DNA from: Naegleria gruberi
Taxonomy: Eukaryota
Strand: one strand, 5' to 3'
Assembly (NCBI GenBank): GCA_000004985.1
Contig: GG738886.1
DNA: 64,000 bases
This document shows, piece by piece, positions 5,407-34,095 of the stretch (position 1 is its first letter; every line of letters begins with the position of its first letter). The position numbers were made by a program, and so were the translations under genes. The notes under the pieces were generated by a model. That model searched no databases, was not told the origin of the DNA, and worked only from the letters and a program-made list of their open reading frames with translations.

Positions 5407-7242
5407 TTAATGTAAATGGAATGTTCCACCTCCATATGCATAATTCATTCTCTCACGCAACAGAATATCAAATTCCTCTTGACTATTGATGTGTGAAAAG
5501 TCAGCAATCAATCCATGATATTTAAGAGCTGCCATTCGATACTCTTCATCATGATTCAAATCAATAGCCAAATAAAACGCAGGGGATAATTTCAATGCCT
5601 TCATAACAAACTCTCTATTTTCTATCAGATTCTTTGGAATTTGTTGATAGGAGAATTTGTATTGATTCACTTTCATGGACGAAAGCAAAATTTCTTCATT
5701 GTCTGTAAGAAAGTTTGGAACTTGAGTGAAAACTACCTTTCTTTGCAATATCAAGTCAGCGATCTTCTGTTTGAAATCCAAATCTGAAACAAGTGATTCT
5801 GCTAGACTAATATTTGTGAAATTACCGAGGTCTATAACTTTCAAAACGAAATCCTTATCATTCTTGAAGAATGGAAAATATTCAATGCAATTCTGATTTA
5901 CCATAACACATTCCATAGCAAACTGACTGTCTTTTAACAAATCTTCCTTTGCAAATCTCATTAAAGAAGCATCATTTCGAATAACTTCCAAAATTCCCTT
6001 TCTATCATTTTGTTTGAACAACAATTCGAAATCTTTTCGTTTGTTTGGTTTTTTCACTTCCTCTTCTTCAATAAACTCATCATTCTCTTCATAATTACCC
6101 ACCATAAACATGTCATTTGAATCGTCTTCCAATTGTAAACTTTCTGATTTTTCATTTTCTTTAAAATTCTCAAAACTTTCATCCTTAATTAGTTCAGCAG
6201 GAATGTAAGGAAGAATTTTACAATCATGATTGAGTGCTTTCAATATAAATTGCTTATTATTTCTCAATTCTGATTGTTCAAGTAAGCTTGGATCATGTTG
6301 CAAACAGTTCAATAAGATTTCTTCATCATTGTTTCTAATACTTTCAGATAGATATCTGAAAGCTAAATAATTAATTTTCACTAATTGAAGGCAAAAATCT
6401 CTATCTTGCAATAAATCTATACCTTTAACATGATCCAGGAGGGTTATGTTGACTGGAGCAATTGCCAAAATTATTTCTCTATCTTTCTTCAATTCGTCTT
6501 TCATATTTGAATTCGAATAGACATTCACATTTCTTTTAATTGCTTCTAAAACCACATGTTTATCCTTAAAAAGATAAGAAAGTGAAGTGTTGTAATGCTG
6601 AACTAGATATTCTACAGCTATTTCAGGATATCTTTCGAATACAGATTCTTCCAAAGTTATTGAATCTGATTTGACAGCTGCCATAATAATTTCAGGATCA
6701 TTTTTCAAATCCTCACTAGCATACAGATAAGCCCACCCATCATTCTTCACAGCAGATAAAACAATTCTCTTGTCTGATTGACATTCCTCTGACAGAAACG
6801 CCAAATGTCTTCCTTGAAATTGAACGAGCATGTGAGCAATGTCAAGATCTGATTTAGAAGTTTCTGAGGATTGAAGGAGAGGATCGCAGAACCATTCCTT
6901 GAATGCCAGTTCGAATAATGATTTTCTGTTCAAAATAAATGGTAAATCTCTGACAAGATTCGAATATTTTGGACGAATTGATTTCATTGCTTGAATCACC
7001 AAATAATCATCAAATAAGAATTCAATAGGAAGAAAGTTGACTTGCAACAGTGAATTTGAAACTCTTCTCTCACGTTGTTCTTTAATATATTTCACTTTAG
7101 CTTCAATCCATTTCGAATAACCTTTTCCCAGTTGCGTAAACTTTTCTTTCAACTTTATCCGAAAGGAATTTTGATTATTTGATAGATAAAACGGTTCTTC
7201 CACCAGAATGAGAATGCACTGCTGCTCATGATCTTGTGACAT
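5407..7242 (-). CDS. Repeat protein of 611 aa with DUF4116-like repeats of roughly 35 aa.
   Basis: Single ORF. Recurrent motif of the form [RK]xxxEI(V/I)LxAVKxxGxALxYASxxLxNDxEI. An acidic low-complexity linker lies mid-protein. The gene at 60212..62089 is a paralogous architecture. Confidence 0.55.
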   Translation of the reverse strand: MSQDHEQQCILILVEEPFYLSNNQNSFRIKLKEKFTQLGKGYSKWIEAKVKYIKEQRERRVSNSLLQVNFLPIEFLFDDYLVIQAMKSIRPKYSNLVRDLPFILNRKSLFELAFKEWFCDPLLQSSETSKSDLDIAHMLVQFQGRHLAFLSEECQSDKRIVLSAVKNDGWAYLYASEDLKNDPEIIMAAVKSDSITLEESVFERYPEIAVEYLVQHYNTSLSYLFKDKHVVLEAIKRNVNVYSNSNMKDELKKDREIILAIAPVNITLLDHVKGIDLLQDRDFCLQLVKINYLAFRYLSESIRNNDEEILLNCLQHDPSLLEQSELRNNKQFILKALNHDCKILPYIPAELIKDESFENFKENEKSESLQLEDDSNDMFMVGNYEENDEFIEEEEVKKPNKRKDFELLFKQNDRKGILEVIRNDASLMRFAKEDLLKDSQFAMECVMVNQNCIEYFPFFKNDKDFVLKVIDLGNFTNISLAESLVSDLDFKQKIADLILQRKVVFTQVPNFLTDNEEILLSSMKVNQYKFSYQQIPKNLIENREFVMKALKLSPAFYLAIDLNHDEEYRMAALKYHGLIADFSHINSQEEFDILLRERMNYAYGGGTFHLH

Positions 7243-17805: not shown

Positions 17806-17878
17806 TGCCGACACCAGGGATCGAACCAGGGACCTTAAGATCTTCAGTCTTACGCTCTCCCAACTGAGCTATGTCGGC
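17806..17878 (-). tRNA. tRNA-Phe (anticodon GAA).
   Basis: Reverse complement reads GCCGACATAGCTCAGTTGGGAGAGCGTAAGACTGAAGATCTTAAGGTCCCTGGTTCGATCCCTGGTGTCGGCA. It has a 7-bp acceptor stem, a D-arm AGCTCAGTTGGGAGAGC, an anticodon loop CTGAAGA, a TΨC arm GGTTCGATCC, and 73 nt without encoded CCA. Confidence 0.85.
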
Positions 17879-28020: not shown

Positions 28021-29015
28021 GTTGCTGTTAATTCAGGTAATAAAAAGGAGTTTGGAGTTTGGATGAGTGAATATTCTACGTATACGTTGATAATGAAAAA
28101 AACCCGCCTTGATGATTTACAGTAGAGACTCCACAACTTTTGATCGAAGGCTTTGCGTTGTTGTGTGTCCTGTTGATTTGATGACTGTTTGATCAAAAAA
28201 TGTTGTGATGATGAATTGATGAATAGAAATTTCTTGTACTGGAGATGAAATATTGAAAATGGTGGTTCGGATTCTTTGTGGATCTAATAATAATAATATT
28301 ATCTGTTGTTGAATATGAGAAGAACTATTCGTTTGTTTTTTTCATTATTGAACCATCACGTCTCATCTGTGATTCTCCAGCAAACAATGGTACATGATGG
28401 AAACACTTGATATGTTGTGTGGTGATGCACTGTTACATATTGTTCATAATATTGCAAATTGGAAGGTTATGATAATTAGCAGAGAAATCAATCAAATTTC
28501 GTCTAATCACTTTGGAAATGGATGGATAAAGCGGCCAATAAAATAGTAGATCTTCTATTCATTGACAATGTTTACAGTTAAGGGAACTGTAGATTCATTT
28601 GTTGGAATTGTAATGTCTTGTAAAATTGAATAATTTGAGAATAGTTGGAAGTTTGAAATAACTATTGACAAGACACTTCTTAATTAGGTGAAGAACTTTT
28701 ATTTACCAAGCGAAACGTTGTATTTATTGTTGTTTGCGAGCATTTTCCTTAAATCCAAATTCTCTTTAGTATCCATTGAAAGCAACTCTTTATTCCAATC
28801 TTATTTCTTAGTTCAAAAATTTGAAAATGCACTGAATAGTCTACATCTTTTTACGGAATTAGGAAATAATAAGACATTATATTTTTAGAGGGATAATTTG
28901 TTGAAAAATATTAATTTTCCTATTTGAAAAATAACTATATCAAGTTGTTTACTTAAATGGCTAAAGTCAAGCCTCATTACTCTCTTTTAATAAACCTTAA
29001 CTTAAGATTGTGAAT

Positions 29016-29134
29016 GGCTACGGCCATATCACGATGAATGCACCTCATCCCGTCCGATTTGAGAAGTTAAGCATCGTCGAGCCACATCAGTACTGAGGTT
29101 GGAGACAACTTGGGAACCTGTGGTGCTGTAGTCT
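29016..29134 (+). rRNA. 5S ribosomal RNA gene, copy 1, 119 nt.
   Basis: GGCTACGGCCATATCACGATGAATGCACCTCATCCCGTCCGATTTGAGAAGTTAAGCATCGTCGAGCCACATCAGTACTGAGGTTGGAGACAACTTGGGAACCTGTGGTGCTGTAGTCT. It carries canonical 5S helices and a box C-like CCGTCCGAT. A T4 Pol III terminator follows immediately. Confidence 0.9.
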
Positions 29135-29138
29135 TTTA
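29135..29138 (+). terminator. Pol III oligo-T terminator of 5S copy 1.
   Basis: A TTTT run directly abuts the 5S 3' end. Confidence 0.4.
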
Positions 29139-29289
29139 ATCTTAGATAAATCAACAGGATTCAAATTGTGCGTATTGAGCTTGAGAGGTTATAAATAACA
29201 TTATGAACTATTGTAAATATTGTGTGAATGATTTAGGTTTTATTTACAATGATTTGCCTAGGTTTACAACATTTTGAGTTAAATGGAGA

Positions 29290-29505
29290 TTACCACTTTT
29301 TGAATTGTTTGTTTCTCATTTCTAAAGTATTATGTGATTGAGATTTGGAAGTTTTGCTTGTTTCACTTCCAATAGAATTCAATGTTTTGTAATCAATTAA
29401 ATTTCTTTTTCTTGTTCCACCCACAATATTATCCAGAGAAATTTCGGAAATAAATTGTGAAGTGTTATTGGAGGAATTATACATATTTCTTCTTGTTGAG
29501 ACCAT
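29290..29505 (-). CDS. Small basic ORF of 71 aa, with a paralogous motif shared by the divergent ORF at 29457..29864.
   Basis: LDNIVGGTRKRNLIDYKTLNSIG on the minus strand matches IISGTRHRNNIDYHHANLNGKQ on the plus strand. Support is weak beyond this pairing. Confidence 0.25.
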   Translation of the reverse strand: MVSTRRNMYNSSNNTSQFISEISLDNIVGGTRKRNLIDYKTLNSIGSETSKTSKSQSHNTLEMRNKQFKKW

Positions 29506-29864
29506 TTTCTTATTGTTATTTTGTTTTGTTGGGGAAATTTCATCATCCGATCAACAGTTATTTATTTCCAGCTAGAAATGCTTCATCAAATTCTTCAAAT
29601 TCTTCCGAAGATAGAATTCCAACTAAAACACAATGGACAAGATCTAAACCAATTGATTTATCTAAAAGATTACCATTATTTGATATTGATACTTCTAATA
29701 TTATAAGTGGAACTAGACATCGTAATAATATTGATTATCATCATGCAAATTTAAATGGTAAACAAATTTCAGTGAAAAGATCTTCGAAAAATTCAATTGA
29801 AAAGAGAGCTAAACAACAATCGAACACCACAACTAAGAAGATTACCAAATCGAAAAAGATGTAA
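29457..29864 (+). CDS. Small basic Ser/Lys-rich ORF of 135 aa, paralogous to 29290..29505.
   Basis: Shares a GTR[HK]RN[NL]IDY motif with the inverted neighbour. The two ORFs overlap at their 5' ends. Confidence 0.25.
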   Translation: MKCYWRNYTYFFLLRPFSYCYFVLLGKFHHPINSYLFPARNASSNSSNSSEDRIPTKTQWTRSKPIDLSKRLPLFDIDTSNIISGTRHRNNIDYHHANLNGKQISVKRSSKNSIEKRAKQQSNTTTKKITKSKKM

Positions 29865-30248
29865 ATTACAACTTGTAAATAATTCAGTAAATTGTAAATA
29901 AAATAATTTGTTTTGAAATAGATGAAGTTTCAATTTAGAATTGATCAGAATATGAGAAACCAAAATTTGGATCAAGCAATTCACATGTCTAATGTTCAAT
30001 AAATTTGAGGTTGATCAACCTTTTCAATTTCTTCAACAACCTGTTATTTGAACACAACAAGATTCGTCCAGAACTCTTGCCTTCACTGTTCATACAGTCA
30101 AAGACTGTAGCGGGATAGTCGCCATATTCCTGGCAGGCTTCCCGTCTAAATTAACAATTGAAAGACAAACAACAAAATCTTATTTACTTGAACTCTTTAA
30201 CTTATTCCTTCATTTTTTCAATTTATTTATTATTCATTGTATTAAGGC

Positions 30249-30320
30249 AATAAATGGCTACGGTATATCGATTCATAGAGTTAAACATTGATTTTGAGTG
30301 ATGAATAGCTGTACCCAAAC
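30249..30320 (+). pseudogene. Degenerate 5S rRNA-like fragment.
   Basis: It starts with AATGGCTACGG, the same upstream context as both intact copies, then diverges. Scattered matches remain: GATTTTGAG versus GATTTGAGAAG, and GTTAAAC versus GTTAAGC. Confidence 0.3.
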
Positions 30321-30616
30321 CATTTTACAAGTATTAAATTTTTCCAATAATCACCTTTTAAATTCAAAACCATTAAGAGTCAAATTGCATTCAATTCACG
30401 AACAACAAGTTAAAATTCATTATTGCATGTACAGCTTAAGCAATACTTACTAAACATGAACCAAATTTGTGTCCAGAAACAAAAATCGGTTCATTGAAAG
30501 AATTTCTTTGCAGAAGAACTACTTTCTAAAAATATATACATCTCAAAACAATATAAAAAGCAAGGAACTGTTTTGAATTCAAGAAAAACAATAAGAAAAA
30601 CAAGACAACAAACACA

Positions 30617-31075
30617 ATGCAATTATTTGTCAAGACACTCACTGGAAGAACTATCACTTTGGAGGTTGAATCTAATGATTCAATTGAAAACGTGAAAAGA
30701 AAAGTACAAGATAAGGAAGGAATTTCACCAGATCAACAAAGACTCATCTTTGCTGGGAAACAATTGGAAGATGGCAGAACTATTAATGATTACAACATTC
30801 AAAAAGATTCAACTCTTCATTTGGTGTTGAGATTAAGAGGAGGAATGCAACTTTTTGTAAAAACTTTAACTGGAAAGACAATCACTATTGAAATGGAATC
30901 GAATGATACTGTTGAGAATATGAAACAAAAGATATTTGATAAGGAAGGTATTCCTTCAGATCAACAACGATTGATTTATGCCGGTAAGCAATTGGAAGAT
31001 GGAAGAACTATTGGTGATTACAATCTTCAAAAGGATTCAACTGTGCATTTAGTATTGAGATTGAGAGGTGGTTAA
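30617..31075 (+). CDS. Di-ubiquitin: two head-to-tail ubiquitin-fold repeats ending in GG. Both repeats diverge from canonical ubiquitin.
   Basis: [76 protein letters not shown] plus a second repeat. About 11 and 17 substitutions against canonical ubiquitin. K48, K63 and the C-terminal GG are retained. Confidence 0.8.
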
Positions 31076-31300
31076 GTTTGCAAAATATCATAGATTCTTT
31101 CAATTATTGTCAATAAATTATTCATTGAATAGCGTATTCTTGTATGAGTATAATTTATAAATCAATTGATAATAAACAAAAACAAGTCGATTGTAACTTA
31201 TACGTACTCAATTTTACATTTATTTTTCAATGCAGTTCAGAAATTTCAGAGGGAAACAAGGGTTGAACCGATTCAAGTTTCACAATTTAAGATGATTAAT

Positions 31301-31419
31301 GGCTACGGCCATATCACGATGAATGCACCTCATCCCGTCCGATTTGAGAAGTTAAGCATCGTAGAGCCACATCAGTACTGAGGTTGGAGACAACTTGGGA
31401 ACCTGTGGTGCTGTAGTCT
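31301..31419 (+). rRNA. 5S ribosomal RNA gene, copy 2, 119 nt, with one substitution relative to copy 1.
   Basis: Identical to copy 1 except C>A at GTAGAGCC. About 15 nt upstream and about 30 nt downstream are also conserved between copies. T5 terminator. Confidence 0.9.
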
Positions 31420-31424
31420 TTTTA
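31420..31424 (+). terminator. Pol III oligo-T terminator of 5S copy 2.
   Basis: A TTTTT run abuts the 5S 3' end. Confidence 0.4.
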
Positions 31425-31490
31425 CCTTGGATAAATCAATAGGATCACTTAAATATCGTTAATGGATTAATTTATTAGAACATGGATACC

Positions 31491-33401
31491 TTAAAGCCCC
31501 TCTGACCAACCATTGAGCATGTTATCAACTGCACCAAGAATAAGTTGGGAAGTTGTTGGTTTCAATAACTGAGCGATGTAACCCGGATCACCAGTTGAGG
31601 TGGCTGCTTGATCATTTCCAAGAATATTGAAACATTGGCCGTACTCAAGTTGTGTTTCTTGAACGAGTGGAAGTGAAAAACCTCCCTTCTCTGGTCCCAC
31701 ATAGATTGTTTGATTCAGTGGGAAACAGAAATCACTTCTGAATTGTAAATCTTGAAAGTGAGGAAGCATGACTGCCTGTTTTGGTGTCTTTTTCATTACT
31801 AAGACATTGTATAGATTGAGAATAGAGTATTCATGAAGTCCCCCTCCTATTGTTCCTTGAGCAAGTAATGGTTTACCTCTTAATGTTACAATAATTGGTT
31901 GGAGTGGATTGAGAATTTGTTGACCTCCCTTCACAGATGCCAGTTGACCTAAATTGGAGGAGATTGCATCGGATAGAGGAATGCCACCAACAATCAAGCC
32001 AGTACCAAAAGGTTGAGAATTGATTGAGTGGACAAGTGCCACTACATTTCCATCAGAATCAGCGACTGTCAAGGAATCAGAATGTCCCTTAATAATTGAT
32101 TCGGATGGAGTCTTGTACATACACGGATTGTTGGGCATTGTTTCACATTTCTTGTAAAATTTGAGCCATCTGTTCAATAAATCCTCCTTATTGGAATTGA
32201 AAATCAAATCATAAGCTTGACGAGCAGTTGTCTTGGAAAGTCGTCCTTGGAAAGATAGGTCAATATTTGGGAACATTGAAGCAAGTAATTGTGGCTTGAA
32301 GTAATCAACTACCTGCACTAATCTTCCCCATCTAGCTATTTGAACCAATTGGTAAAGAGAGTTAGCGGATTCGTTGTATGGTTGAGTGTTGTTCAATAGT
32401 TCAATTAAATTCATAGCCTCAATAATTGACATTCCACCAATGCTTGGATAATCAAGTCCATGAATTGTTAACTCTTCCAATTTGAATGTTCCATTCAATG
32501 CCTCTCCCCAAATTGGCTGATACTGGATCATGTCTTGCATTGTAATTATTCCACCATATTGATTGACCTTAGTGACAAAATCTTTAGCCCACTCTCCTGT
32601 GTACATGTAATCAGATCCAAATTGAGAAACATTTTTAAGAGTATCTGCCAATTCCAATTGTCTAAACAATTCTCCTTTCTTGTATGGTTGATTCGTATTT
32701 GGATTTATGAATATTCTCTTTCCTTCCTCAAATTTAAAAATCTTGTAACCATCATATTTCAGTAAATATTCTATTTGTGAATCAGCAATGAATCCCTTCT
32801 CTGAAAAATAAATTGCAGGTTCCAAAACAGTTTCCCATTTCAATTTTCCAAATTTCTTATGAGCAGATTCCATAGCTCTGAAAAATCCAGGAACCAAAAC
32901 TCTATATCCCAAACAATTATCCAATTTTGAATTTACACACCTATTATCCGAATCATACTTGAGTGGTTTGTTAAAAACTCCATTCAATGAGTGAATTTTC
33001 CCACTCTTTGCATCATAGTACACCATCGCAGCCAACCCACCAAATGAAACATAACTCCCACCAGCAATAACAATCTGTGCCATTACTGCTCCTACAGTTG
33101 CATCCATGGCATTTCCTCCATTTTCCAATATAACAGTTGCCACATGAACAGCAAGTGCAGAAGAGGTTCCACTCACCAAACCCTTTCCATTCATTGAAAC
33201 TCCCTGTGGTTTATCATATCGATATCCAACCATGTTCAATAGCGAAGTGTAATGTTTAATGGTCTCCTCGGACCATGTAGATGGAGAAATATCTCCACAT
33301 ACCTGATGAACACAACAACAACAGCAAAATAAGATGATCATCAGATACACAAAGCATCTCACGGATGGGATAATAACTCGCCCAGGTTTGAGTTTGAACA
33401 T
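31491..33401 (-). CDS. Gamma-glutamyltranspeptidase (GGT) of 636 aa with an N-terminal signal/anchor.
   Basis: Hydrophobic N-terminus. GGSYVSFGGLAAMVYYD. A GGT signature region TVADSDGNVVALVHSINSQPFGTGLIVGGIPLSD that includes the nucleophile threonine context. Single ORF. Confidence 0.8.
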   Translation of the reverse strand: MFKLKPGRVIIPSVRCFVYLMIILFCCCCCVHQVCGDISPSTWSEETIKHYTSLLNMVGYRYDKPQGVSMNGKGLVSGTSSALAVHVATVILENGGNAMDATVGAVMAQIVIAGGSYVSFGGLAAMVYYDAKSGKIHSLNGVFNKPLKYDSDNRCVNSKLDNCLGYRVLVPGFFRAMESAHKKFGKLKWETVLEPAIYFSEKGFIADSQIEYLLKYDGYKIFKFEEGKRIFINPNTNQPYKKGELFRQLELADTLKNVSQFGSDYMYTGEWAKDFVTKVNQYGGIITMQDMIQYQPIWGEALNGTFKLEELTIHGLDYPSIGGMSIIEAMNLIELLNNTQPYNESANSLYQLVQIARWGRLVQVVDYFKPQLLASMFPNIDLSFQGRLSKTTARQAYDLIFNSNKEDLLNRWLKFYKKCETMPNNPCMYKTPSESIIKGHSDSLTVADSDGNVVALVHSINSQPFGTGLIVGGIPLSDAISSNLGQLASVKGGQQILNPLQPIIVTLRGKPLLAQGTIGGGLHEYSILNLYNVLVMKKTPKQAVMLPHFQDLQFRSDFCFPLNQTIYVGPEKGGFSLPLVQETQLEYGQCFNILGNDQAATSTGDPGYIAQLLKPTTSQLILGAVDNMLNGWSEGL

Positions 33402-33525: not shown

Positions 33526-34095
33526 TTATTGTTGAAATTCATTTTCTAAAAAGTTTGAAAATTCTTGTTCCATTTTGAATTGTTTAAAAACAGTTCCCAA
33601 TCTAATAATTTCCTTTCGAATATCTTTTCTTGTTTCTGGATGAATATTATTCTTATTCTTTCTAAGAAATTCCATTTGTCTCTCTTGATTCAATAATTCT
33701 TGTGAGGAATTGTAGGCTCTATTTGCAGCAATCCAATCAACAACCATTTCAGTAACATAACATATTGGCATTCTCAGTGATTTGATGGCACCATTCGATC
33801 GATCACATGTAATCCAATATTCAAAGTGGTGAGGATTTCTATTTTGATGATGCAGAAAGCAATACTCCTTCAAATCTTCATTATTGCTTGTCGCCAAATT
33901 ATTAAATTGTAAATAGCCAAACCATTCGGAAGGTGAAAACTTGGACCAATCATGAATAATCAATTGGATAATACCCAATCCCATCATGTATCCATAGTAA
34001 AAAACAATTAATTTGTGATAAAGAATGGTACGAAGGAGTGAGAGATGTGTTTTCATTCGTTGTAATAACTTAAAGGGAGAAGAACAACAAGACAT
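33526..34095 (-). CDS. Hypothetical protein of 189 aa, His-rich, with a possible metal-binding HxxH cluster.
   Basis: Single ORF with CFLHHQNRNPHHFEYW. No family assigned. Confidence 0.35.
   Translation of the reverse strand: MSCCSSPFKLLQRMKTHLSLLRTILYHKLIVFYYGYMMGLGIIQLIIHDWSKFSPSEWFGYLQFNNLATSNNEDLKEYCFLHHQNRNPHHFEYWITCDRSNGAIKSLRMPICYVTEMVVDWIAANRAYNSSQELLNQERQMEFLRKNKNNIHPETRKDIRKEIIRLGTVFKQFKMEQEFSNFLENEFQQ

Follow-up and report, generated by a model that had tools for sequence, protein, structure and literature searches.

Two intact 5S rRNA genes and a truncated relic at a dispersed locus of Naegleria gruberi, with a candidate upstream element

INTRODUCTION

Two 5S rRNA genes that lie close together among protein-coding genes, with a possible third copy between them, raise the question of how the 5S genes of Naegleria gruberi are organized and whether the few bases that these copies share upstream serve any function. 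We addressed this in a 64-kb stretch of N. gruberi DNA (the window, in which all positions are counted from the first base), which corresponds to scaffold_42, about 64001-128000, and encodes two proteins with 100% identity to proteins of this species. Our reading, to which we assign a probability of roughly 0.88, is that a dispersed family of about 280 5S genes, neither arrayed nor linked to the rDNA, is represented at this locus by two working genes and a dead relic. The dispersed arrangement and both intact genes are already catalogued (PMC3369914); the modestly new part is the short shared upstream motif, and the cassette duplication, the stub and the TTAA/AAT context described below are absent from that paper.

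RESULTS

Two intact 5S rRNA genes within a duplicated cassette

Both full-length copies lie on the + strand and match Rfam model RF00001 over its whole length (1-120), copy A (29016..29134) with 105.4 bits and copy B (31301..31419) with 106.5 bits, far above the gathering score of 38. Their starts are 2285 bp apart and a single substitution separates them, at gene position 63, where copy A has the majority C (29078) and copy B an A (31363). These data bear out the initial annotation, which had described two intact 5S genes on the same strand, 2.3 kb apart and differing by one base. Position 63 is an unpaired bulge in the 5S structure; the A of copy B is the Rfam consensus base there, although it was found in none of five other Naegleria-type copies. 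In a comparison of ten sequences, including the 5S gene of N. fowleri (93% identical), 18 of the 39 consensus pairs had changed on both sides with pairing kept.

The genes also have the anatomy of type 1 Pol III units, as far as this can be read from the sequence. Using the box consensus sequences given in PMC3369914, we found an exact match to box A at +50, box C at +80 with two mismatches, and a loose match resembling the IE at +61. Each gene runs into a presumed Pol III terminator on the + strand, T4 at 29134..29137 in copy A and T5 at 31419..31423 in copy B, and all related 5S copies likewise finish with T3-T5 runs. Copy A has a TATA-like sequence, TTTTAATAAA, at -31..-22, and no TATA-like or AT-rich box was found near -30 in the upstream flank of copy B. 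Both copies would thus be predicted to be transcribed by Pol III.

Each gene sits within a larger direct repeat on the + strand, which comprises 17 nt upstream, the gene, the T-run and approximately 26 nt downstream (cassette A, 28999..29160; cassette B, 31284..31445). The repeat is 162 nt long with 94% identity, in agreement with the duplicated unit of about 165 bp proposed earlier. Identity is 118/119 bases in the gene, 13/17 upstream and 22/26 downstream, and the similarity breaks off sharply 17 nt upstream and approximately 26-30 nt downstream of the gene. The two flanks behaved differently when compared with other 5S loci. The upstream context recurs at independent loci, as described below, whereas only copies A and B share the 26-nt block downstream (z=6.6, against z≤1.5 for every other pair of 5S loci), which rules this block out as a general 5S flank and marks it as the trace of a local duplication. 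Copies A and B would accordingly be products of the local duplication of a cassette of approximately 165 bp, after which purifying selection and/or gene conversion may have kept the gene bodies nearly identical while the flanks drifted.

A 5′ stub and the neighbouring genes

A third copy at approximately 30249 had been described as truncated or diverged, and it proved to be the former: a 5′ stub of about 29 nt (30242..30270, + strand) that reads TTAAG-N6-AAT followed by GGCTACGG-TATATC. It retains the upstream context and gene bases 1-11 exactly, or 1-17 with one gap (to TATATC, ending at 30270), and lacks the region of +18..+119 and hence the internal control region (+50..+97). The stub gave no match to the 5S covariance model, even at E≤10, and its local-alignment score of 24-26 falls below the largest null score of 31. 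Its significance therefore rests on a pattern with fixed spacing, TTAAG-N6-AATGGCTACGG, which has 16 specified bases, is matched exactly at 30242-30263 and occurs three times in the window against 0.02 expected. Judged by its sequence, the stub is the leftover of a third 5S copy and a dead relic. Its flanks showed borderline homology with a metagenomic 5S locus, L020 (E 0.03-0.09), which we set aside.

No further 5S pieces were found in the window beyond copies A and B and the stub. One candidate, element E (30097-30152), was rejected as a diverged piece of 5S (z=0.2); an open frame without an ATG crosses this element.

Copies A and B are separated by 2.1 kb containing protein-coding ORFs, and the flanks of each copy are unique. 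As had been proposed, a di-ubiquitin gene and an inverted pair of small ORFs lie between them. The former (30617-31075, + strand) encodes two ubiquitin domains, 86% and 79% identical with human ubiquitin. The latter is a head-to-head pair of paralogues (29290-29505 on the - strand; 29571-29864 on the + strand, without an in-frame ATG) that share 45% identity over 47 amino acids (E=2e-8) and a CHZ-like motif, NI(V/I)xGTRxRNxIDY.

Genome-wide organization of the 5S genes

The published catalogue assigns 279 putative 5S genes to 117 scaffolds and includes copy A (scaffold_42:93019-93135) and copy B (scaffold_42:95304-95420), the latter slightly less similar to the query used there (PMC3369914, Table S1; PLoS One 2012;7:e36878). 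The spacing of these two entries, 2285, equals that of 29016 and 31301 in the window. When parsed, the catalogued coordinates resolved into 207 singletons, 30 pairs and four triplets, with no head-to-tail arrays and a smallest spacing of 462 bp; the distance between neighbours had a median of 34 kb. Gaps of up to 6 kb were in excess, with 38 observed against 11.2 expected (P about 3e-10) for a genome that we take to be 41 Mb. Dispersal of this kind conflicts with Table 1 of the same paper, in which the N. gruberi arrangement is marked 'tandem'. The paper also reports the genes as unlinked to rDNA and as having an internal control region and a TATA box (PMC3369914).

An Rfam search of the window detected no 18S, 5.8S or 28S gene, and only the two 5S genes and one tRNA scored above the thresholds. 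Together with the unique flanks, this upholds the view of 5S genes interspersed with protein-coding genes and outside any rDNA repeat; placement within a larger tandem rDNA unit fits neither the absence of large rRNA genes here nor that of arrays in the published coordinates. Furthermore, the 18S/5.8S/28S rDNA of Naegleria resides on a 14-kb extrachromosomal circle (PMC5805870), so the chromosomal 5S genes are necessarily unlinked from it. The overall picture is one of a nuclear family of approximately 280 copies in chromosomal intergenic spaces, either single or loosely grouped in twos and threes at distances of 1-6 kb, in which each copy is probably a self-contained Pol III unit with an internal control region, a T4-5 terminator and a short upstream context.

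Recurrence of the upstream context at independent loci

Further 5S loci came from several searches. A metagenome scan with a 26-mer of the 5S gene gave no match, and the 5S gene and element E likewise had no match in viral contigs or GTDB genomes. A second metagenome scan gave 14 loci, of which only L009 was of Naegleria type and the others belonged to different organisms. A protein search with spurious translations of the 5S gene hit two metagenome ORFs, leading to L019, whose upstream flank is only 2 nt long, and to L020. With the N. fowleri gene (L021), this gave three independent flanks, which come from related Naegleria in metagenomes and from N. fowleri and not from the 277 further N. 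gruberi copies.

Copies A (29002..29015, + strand) and B (31287..31300, + strand) both have TTAAGAT at -14..-8 and AAT at -3..-1. At the independent loci, L009 has TTAAcAT at -15 and gAT at -3..-1, L020 has TTAAGAT at -22 and AAT at -3..-1, and the N. fowleri gene has TTAAtAa at -13 and AAT at -3..-1. Across all six loci, three of which are independent, the TTAA box thus begins at -14 (three times), -15 and -13, but at -22 in L020, so that its spacing is inconstant; AAT occupies -3..-1 in five of the six, three of the six being independent of the locus of A, B and the stub. The presence of TTAA at -14±1 in at least two of the three independent loci had a P value of 0.0016, and that of AAT at -3..-1 in at least two of the three a P value of 0.0055. 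TTAAGAT itself occurs five times on both strands of the window (128 kb), twice upstream of the 5S genes and three times elsewhere. Between the conserved TTAA and AAT blocks, positions -7..-4 are variable, a pattern that a simple conversion tract would not readily produce.

No TTAAGAT was found upstream of the tRNA-Phe gene in the window or of the three complete tRNA genes of L020, a fourth L020 tRNA being cut by the contig end so that its flank fell outside this check. As far as tRNA genes are concerned, TTAAGAT is thus rejected as a general Pol III motif, and the upstream element looks specific to 5S. The initial annotation had suggested a lineage-specific Pol III upstream element; recurrence at independent loci and in N. 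fowleri supports this in part, but the element looks confined to 5S genes instead of being common to Pol III genes, as the tRNA genes lack the motif. On the strength of the same two observations, the upstream context is plausibly a candidate 5S-specific start-site or promoter element.

Positions of 5S genes in related genomes

In a relative that is about 91% identical (L001), a 5S gene lies beside the di-ubiquitin gene on the opposite strand, and this relative lacks the segment with copy A, the ORF pair and the stub. The ABC1 kinase gene of N. fowleri has a 5S gene 3 kb away, and the corresponding place in N. gruberi has no 5S gene. No 5S gene was found at the GGT loci of Willaertia (L003) and of a metagenome (L004), and our attempt at synteny found no GGT orthologue in N. 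fowleri. Thus the positions and orientations of 5S genes differ between close relatives, which fits birth-and-death turnover, and although this evidence comes from a few loci (L001, N. fowleri, Willaertia and the metagenome), it suggests that 5S copies may be gained and lost rapidly.

DISCUSSION

Alternative explanations

Two alternatives concern how the locus came about and what it now contains. The cassette might be a mobile unit, inserted at TTAA sites or through reverse-transcribed read-through transcripts, rather than an ordinary local duplicate. Its ends hug the gene (17 nt upstream and approximately 30 nt downstream), TTAA stands on both sides of cassette B (31287 and 31449; cassette A has TTAA and TCAA), L001 has an inverted 5S gene next to its di-ubiquitin gene, and 5S copies are spread across 117 scaffolds. 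However, TTAA is frequent in this DNA of 33% GC, at 0.8% of positions, and the other 5S loci lack a matching downstream boundary or target-site duplication; in the few loci compared, the trend was towards no consistent cassette ends or target-site duplications at all, which leaves TTAA unsupported as a target-site duplication. In addition, the upstream 17 nt would be missing from a Pol III transcript and neither a transposase nor a reverse transcriptase is encoded next to the cassettes, and we consider mobility very improbable. It is also improbable, if somewhat less so, that one full-length copy, most likely B, is silent or recently inactivated, leaving one working gene and two relics. The private A63 and the lack of an AT-rich box near -30 would fit such a loss, but the change gives the consensus base in an unpaired bulge, and copy B slightly outscores copy A and has kept its internal control region, its upstream motif and its terminator intact. 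We retain local duplication, with two working copies, as the preferred reading.

The alternative with most weight, although still unlikely in our judgement, is that the upstream similarity has no function and is simply the edge of a duplicated cassette or of gene-conversion tracts spilling past the gene. With 2.3 kb spanning copies A and B and the stub, all three could derive from one ancestral cassette, the downstream block is clearly a mere trace of duplication, the spacing of the motif varies (in L020 it is 8 nt further from the gene), and very few independent loci were sampled. Against this, TTAA near -14 (P=0.0016) and AAT at -3..-1 (P=0.0055) reappear at independent loci with different genomic surroundings, N. 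fowleri included, TTAAGAT is very rare in the window, with three occurrences outside 5S genes in 128 kb, and a contiguous conversion tract would not leave positions -7..-4 variable between conserved blocks. Under our preferred reading, the TTAA box near -14 and the AAT at -3..-1 would most likely assist in setting the start site or recruiting TFIIIB. That Naegleria 5S genes may depend on such a 5S-specific external element, TTAA(G)AT at about -14 plus AAT, is a speculative proposal that we put forward with considerable reserve.

Comparison with known systems

Short conserved sequences upstream of 5S genes are familiar from other eukaryotes: Arabidopsis has a TATA-like box at -28, GC at -12 and C at -1, the Saccharomyces cerevisiae gene has a start-site element, and Drosophila and Bombyx have upstream regions. 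The Naegleria genes resemble these in combining a short conserved sequence just before +1 with the internal control region, and the candidate element differs in being TTAAGAT or TTAA plus AAT, at -14 and -3..-1. In Schizosaccharomyces pombe, a TATA box is a general upstream element of Pol III genes, tRNA genes included; in contrast, the Naegleria motif is absent upstream of the tRNA genes checked.

Dispersed 5S genes are also known in Neurospora crassa and S. pombe, and in filamentous fungi such genes undergo birth-and-death evolution with truncated pseudogenes, a mode also considered for the 5S genes of animals. The local duplicates, decayed fragment and unconserved positions seen in Naegleria are comparable, although here the relic retains the 5′ end with its upstream context and the evidence for turnover comes from a few loci. 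Among protists, Acanthamoeba castellanii has about 100 5S copies over most chromosomes (PMC9528979). As in N. gruberi, the dispersed genes of A. castellanii, N. crassa and S. pombe are single genes with unique flanks that lie between protein-coding genes and apart from the large rDNA, and they have homogeneous gene bodies and pseudogene fragments. N. gruberi differs in belonging to the Heterolobosea and in its wholly extrachromosomal large rDNA, and it shows an excess of loose 5S pairs at 1-6 kb. The N. gruberi set described earlier includes the same genes as copies A and B, and for this set an internal control region and a TATA box were reported (PMC3369914).

Significance

The significance of the locus lies mostly in annotation, as a clean example of 5S organization in Naegleria, and the coordinates correct a published table that calls this arrangement tandem. 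The C/A difference at position 63 offers a handy tag for establishing which dispersed 5S copies are transcribed. No TFIIIA has been recognized in N. gruberi (PMC3369914), and the upstream motif supplies a concrete 5S-specific candidate element in a lineage where that factor was not found. If Naegleria 5S genes do depend on it, their promoters would be a variant of the classical type 1 form, driven in part from upstream rather than wholly from within the gene, and this dependence would explain why the same 15 bases accompany every dispersed copy, even the dead stub. The 5S genes of Naegleria number a few hundred and occupy the gaps between genes on the chromosomes, and its other rRNAs come from thousands of extrachromosomal circles.

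5S rRNA genes of the window and their cassettes

The Rfam search returned two complete 5S rRNA genes on the plus strand of the window, copy A at 29016-29134 (105.4 bits) and copy B at 31301-31419 (106.5 bits; gathering score 38), whose starts lie 2285 bp apart, and the sole further Rfam match in the 64 kb was a tRNA-Phe gene at 17806-17878 on the minus strand. As the initial annotation had proposed, both genes are intact and are separated by a single substitution, at gene position 63 (C at 29078 and A at 31363), which is unpaired in the Rfam model. Each gene sits in a direct repeat of 162 nt (28999-29160 and 31284-31445; 94% identical), in good agreement with the duplicated unit of approximately 165 bp described earlier, and outside these limits the surroundings of the two copies are unrelated. 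Matching bases numbered 118/119 for the gene, against 13/17 for the flank upstream and 22/26 for that downstream; nearly invariant gene bodies set in flanks that are only 76-85% identical imply that purifying selection and/or gene conversion acts on the 5S gene body.

In addition, the stretch at 30242-30270 reads TTAAG-N6-AAT and then GGCTACGG-TATATC, i.e. the upstream context of the genes (a TTAA box near -14 and AAT at -3 to -1) followed by gene bases 1-17 with one deletion. The 16 specified bases of this pattern match exactly, with three matches in the window against 0.02 expected. A covariance-model search at this site gave no 5S match even at E<=10, and the reading as a diverged gene was rejected; of the earlier description as a third, truncated or diverged copy, the truncation and the retained upstream context hold, and the stretch is a dead 5S stub. 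No 5S fragments were found in the window besides copies A and B and this stub.

Genome-wide organization of the 5S family

The genome-wide copy count that the initial annotation called for could be taken from published coordinates, as a search of the N. gruberi genome for 5S genes in 2012 gave 279 hits, listed in Table S1 (PMC3369914). Its entries scaffold_42:93019-93135 and 95304-95420 reproduce the 2285-bp distance between copies A and B exactly, so the window is scaffold_42:64001-128000 and both copies are already on record. When parsed with pairs and triplets defined by gaps of <=6 kb, the table yielded 207 singletons, 30 pairs and 4 triplets on 117 scaffolds; neighbouring hits were never closer than 462 bp and lay a median 34 kb apart. 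Gaps of <=6 kb numbered 38, compared with 11.2 expected under random placement in a genome that we take to be about 41 Mb (P about 3e-10), and this excess implies that local duplication is a regular source of new 5S copies. Although Table 1 of the 2012 study labels the arrangement as tandem (PMC3369914), its own Table S1 contradicts this, with 207/279 singletons and no head-to-tail arrays among the 279 hits on 117 scaffolds.

In Naegleria, the 18S, 5.8S and 28S genes are carried only by an extrachromosomal circle, of which there are thousands of copies (PMC5805870 and related announcements), so the 5S genes cannot be rDNA-linked. The unique flanks, together with the Table S1 coordinates, likewise rule out collapsed arrays and rDNA linkage, and the proposal that these genes lie outside an rDNA repeat, scattered among protein genes, is fully borne out. 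Dispersed 5S genes have similarly been documented in Acanthamoeba (PMC9528979). The locus represents the ordinary, already catalogued 5S organization of N. gruberi. Dispersed 5S genes are also known in Neurospora and S. pombe.

Neighbouring genes and element E

The di-ubiquitin gene and the inverted pair of small ORFs reported between the 5S copies were both found. The small ORFs, at 29290-29505 (minus strand) and 29571-29864 (plus strand), are head-to-head paralogs (45% identity over 47 aa, E=2e-8) with a common CHZ-like histone-chaperone motif, NI(V/I)xGTRxRNxIDY; the plus-strand ORF has no in-frame ATG, and therefore either requires an upstream exon or is a pseudogene. The repeats of the di-ubiquitin gene (30617-31075, plus strand), which terminates straight after GG, are unusually diverged: they share 86% and 79% identity with human ubiquitin and, at the DNA level, 77% with one another. 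An identical protein is encoded in an ENA metagenome and in the NCBI assembly GCA_006365155.1, on short contigs in both cases. The sequence GTATTGAGCTTGAGAGGT at 29172-29189, 38 nt downstream of copy A and just past the end of the A/B similarity, corresponds at 17/18 positions to the 3' end of the di-ubiquitin ORF (31052-31069, coding VLRLRG); a ubiquitin gene end may have left a remnant here, or the match may be due to chance.

Two proteins of the window are 100% identical to N. gruberi proteins, and their orthologs are 81% identical in N. fowleri and 50-59% in Willaertia magna. A gamma-glutamyltranspeptidase (GGT) gene at 31491-33401 (minus strand) had orthologs only in Willaertia (50%) and on one metagenome contig (63%); the remaining matches were about 30-35% identical, the few with an organism name being bacterial, and no N. 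fowleri protein was among them. Horizontal acquisition and lineage-specific loss are candidate explanations for this distribution. ORFs with DUF5662 (33526-34095, minus strand) and with five DUF4116 repeats (5407-7242, minus strand) are unrelated to the 5S finding.

Element E, a GC-rich stretch of 56 nt at 30097-30152 (plus strand) that perhaps extends to a T-run at 30213-30218, is 55/56 identical to positions 1086-1141 of L020 (ENA ERZ929261, 1354 bp), with unrelated flanks. The element forms two hairpins when folded (-26.8 kcal/mol, z=-5.5), with the lone difference located in a bulge, and both copies continue into an A-rich stretch and then, roughly 120 nt after the element starts, a T5-6 run. 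It matched no Rfam family, contained no ATG-initiated reading frame and was rejected as a 5S-like sequence by comparison with 5S; it could represent either a Pol III small RNA gene that has escaped annotation or a SINE-like element. L020 itself is a dense Pol III gene cluster comprising four tRNA genes and a 5S gene (92.3 bits, with a 2-nt insertion in loop C), and carries a direct repeat of about 40 nt (945-983 and 1025-1073).

Turnover of 5S positions

In L001 (ENA ERZ929261), from a Naegleria relative about 91% identical to the window at this locus, the 5S gene lies at 1295-1403, about 165 nt past the di-ubiquitin stop codon and on the opposite strand; synteny is lost upstream of di-ubiquitin, where copy A, the ORF pair and the stub are missing and another gene takes up their segment. 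The N. fowleri 5S gene (L021:6857-6975, minus strand; GCA_008403515.1, VFQX01000034.1; 102.3 bits) is 93% identical to that of N. gruberi, with compensatory helix changes; it is flanked by two protein genes in divergent orientation, and the ABC1 kinase ortholog lies 3 kb away. No 5S gene was found in the corresponding N. gruberi region, nor at the GGT loci of Willaertia and the metagenome contig. These differences in position and strand indicate that 5S positions turn over quickly, in keeping with the birth-and-death mode of evolution described for families of dispersed 5S genes.

Comparison of the flanks across loci

The flanks were compared with Naegleria-type 5S loci from outside the N. gruberi genome, namely L001, L019 and L020 (an ENA metagenome with a relative that shares about 91% identity with N. 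gruberi), L009 (a JGI metagenome) and L021. Of the flanks, the upstream context recurred at other 5S loci, though at a variable distance from the gene, but not the downstream block, which is common to A and B only (z=6.6; all other locus pairs z<=1.5) and is thus a trace of duplication. In copies A and B and the stub, TTAAG stands at -14 and AAT at -3 to -1; L009 shows TTAAcAT at -15 and then gAT, L020 an exact TTAAGAT at -22 followed by AAT, and N. fowleri TTAAtAa at -13 followed by AAT. For three independent loci, finding TTAA at -14 +/-1 in two or more of them had a P value of 0.0016, and finding AAT at -3 to -1 in two or more a P value of 0.0055. TTAAGAT occurs five times in the window, counting both strands, and two of these occurrences lie upstream of 5S genes.

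The motif was absent upstream of the four tRNA genes with readable flanks (tRNA-Phe of the window and three in L020), which points to a context specific to 5S rather than general to Pol III. The evidence for the upstream context is suggestive, drawn from few loci and with a spacing that is not fixed. The lineage-specific Pol III upstream element proposed initially survives as a candidate through its recurrence at independent loci, but not as a general Pol III signal, and this short context shared across loci and species is the only, modestly new, point. The 5S genes of another organism on VFQM/VFQO metagenome contigs (L005-L008, L010-L014, L016 and L017; GGGTACGGTCATCTTG...), which are single with unique flanks, share a pyrimidine-rich TTTCTTC-like context immediately before +1, and short lineage-specific upstream contexts may thus be common among dispersed 5S families.

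Proposed mechanism

Each 5S copy most likely functions autonomously as a Pol III unit. Its internal control region occupies the canonical place, with an exact box A consensus at +50 and box C with two mismatches at +80, and a T4 or T5 run directly follows the gene. Covariation supports the structure, as 18/39 pairs have changed on both sides with pairing kept among ten sequences, and these include helix changes that distinguish N. fowleri from N. gruberi. That copy B is silent appears improbable, as the one base peculiar to it is unpaired and the rest of the copy is intact. The upstream similarity could instead be a non-functional cassette edge, a reading that we consider doubtful yet the most serious of these alternatives; its recurrence at independent loci speaks against it, and the variable positions -7 to -4 between conserved blocks are unlike a gene-conversion tract extending outward from the gene. 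Spread of the cassette as a mobile unit with a TTAA target is very unlikely, since TTAA is common in this DNA and the other loci lack consistent cassette ends.

The TTAA/AAT context would probably contribute to start-site choice or TFIIIB placement, by analogy with the upstream elements carried by 5S genes of plants, yeast and insects. As no TFIIIA was found in N. gruberi (PMC3369914), this candidate upstream element gains some interest.
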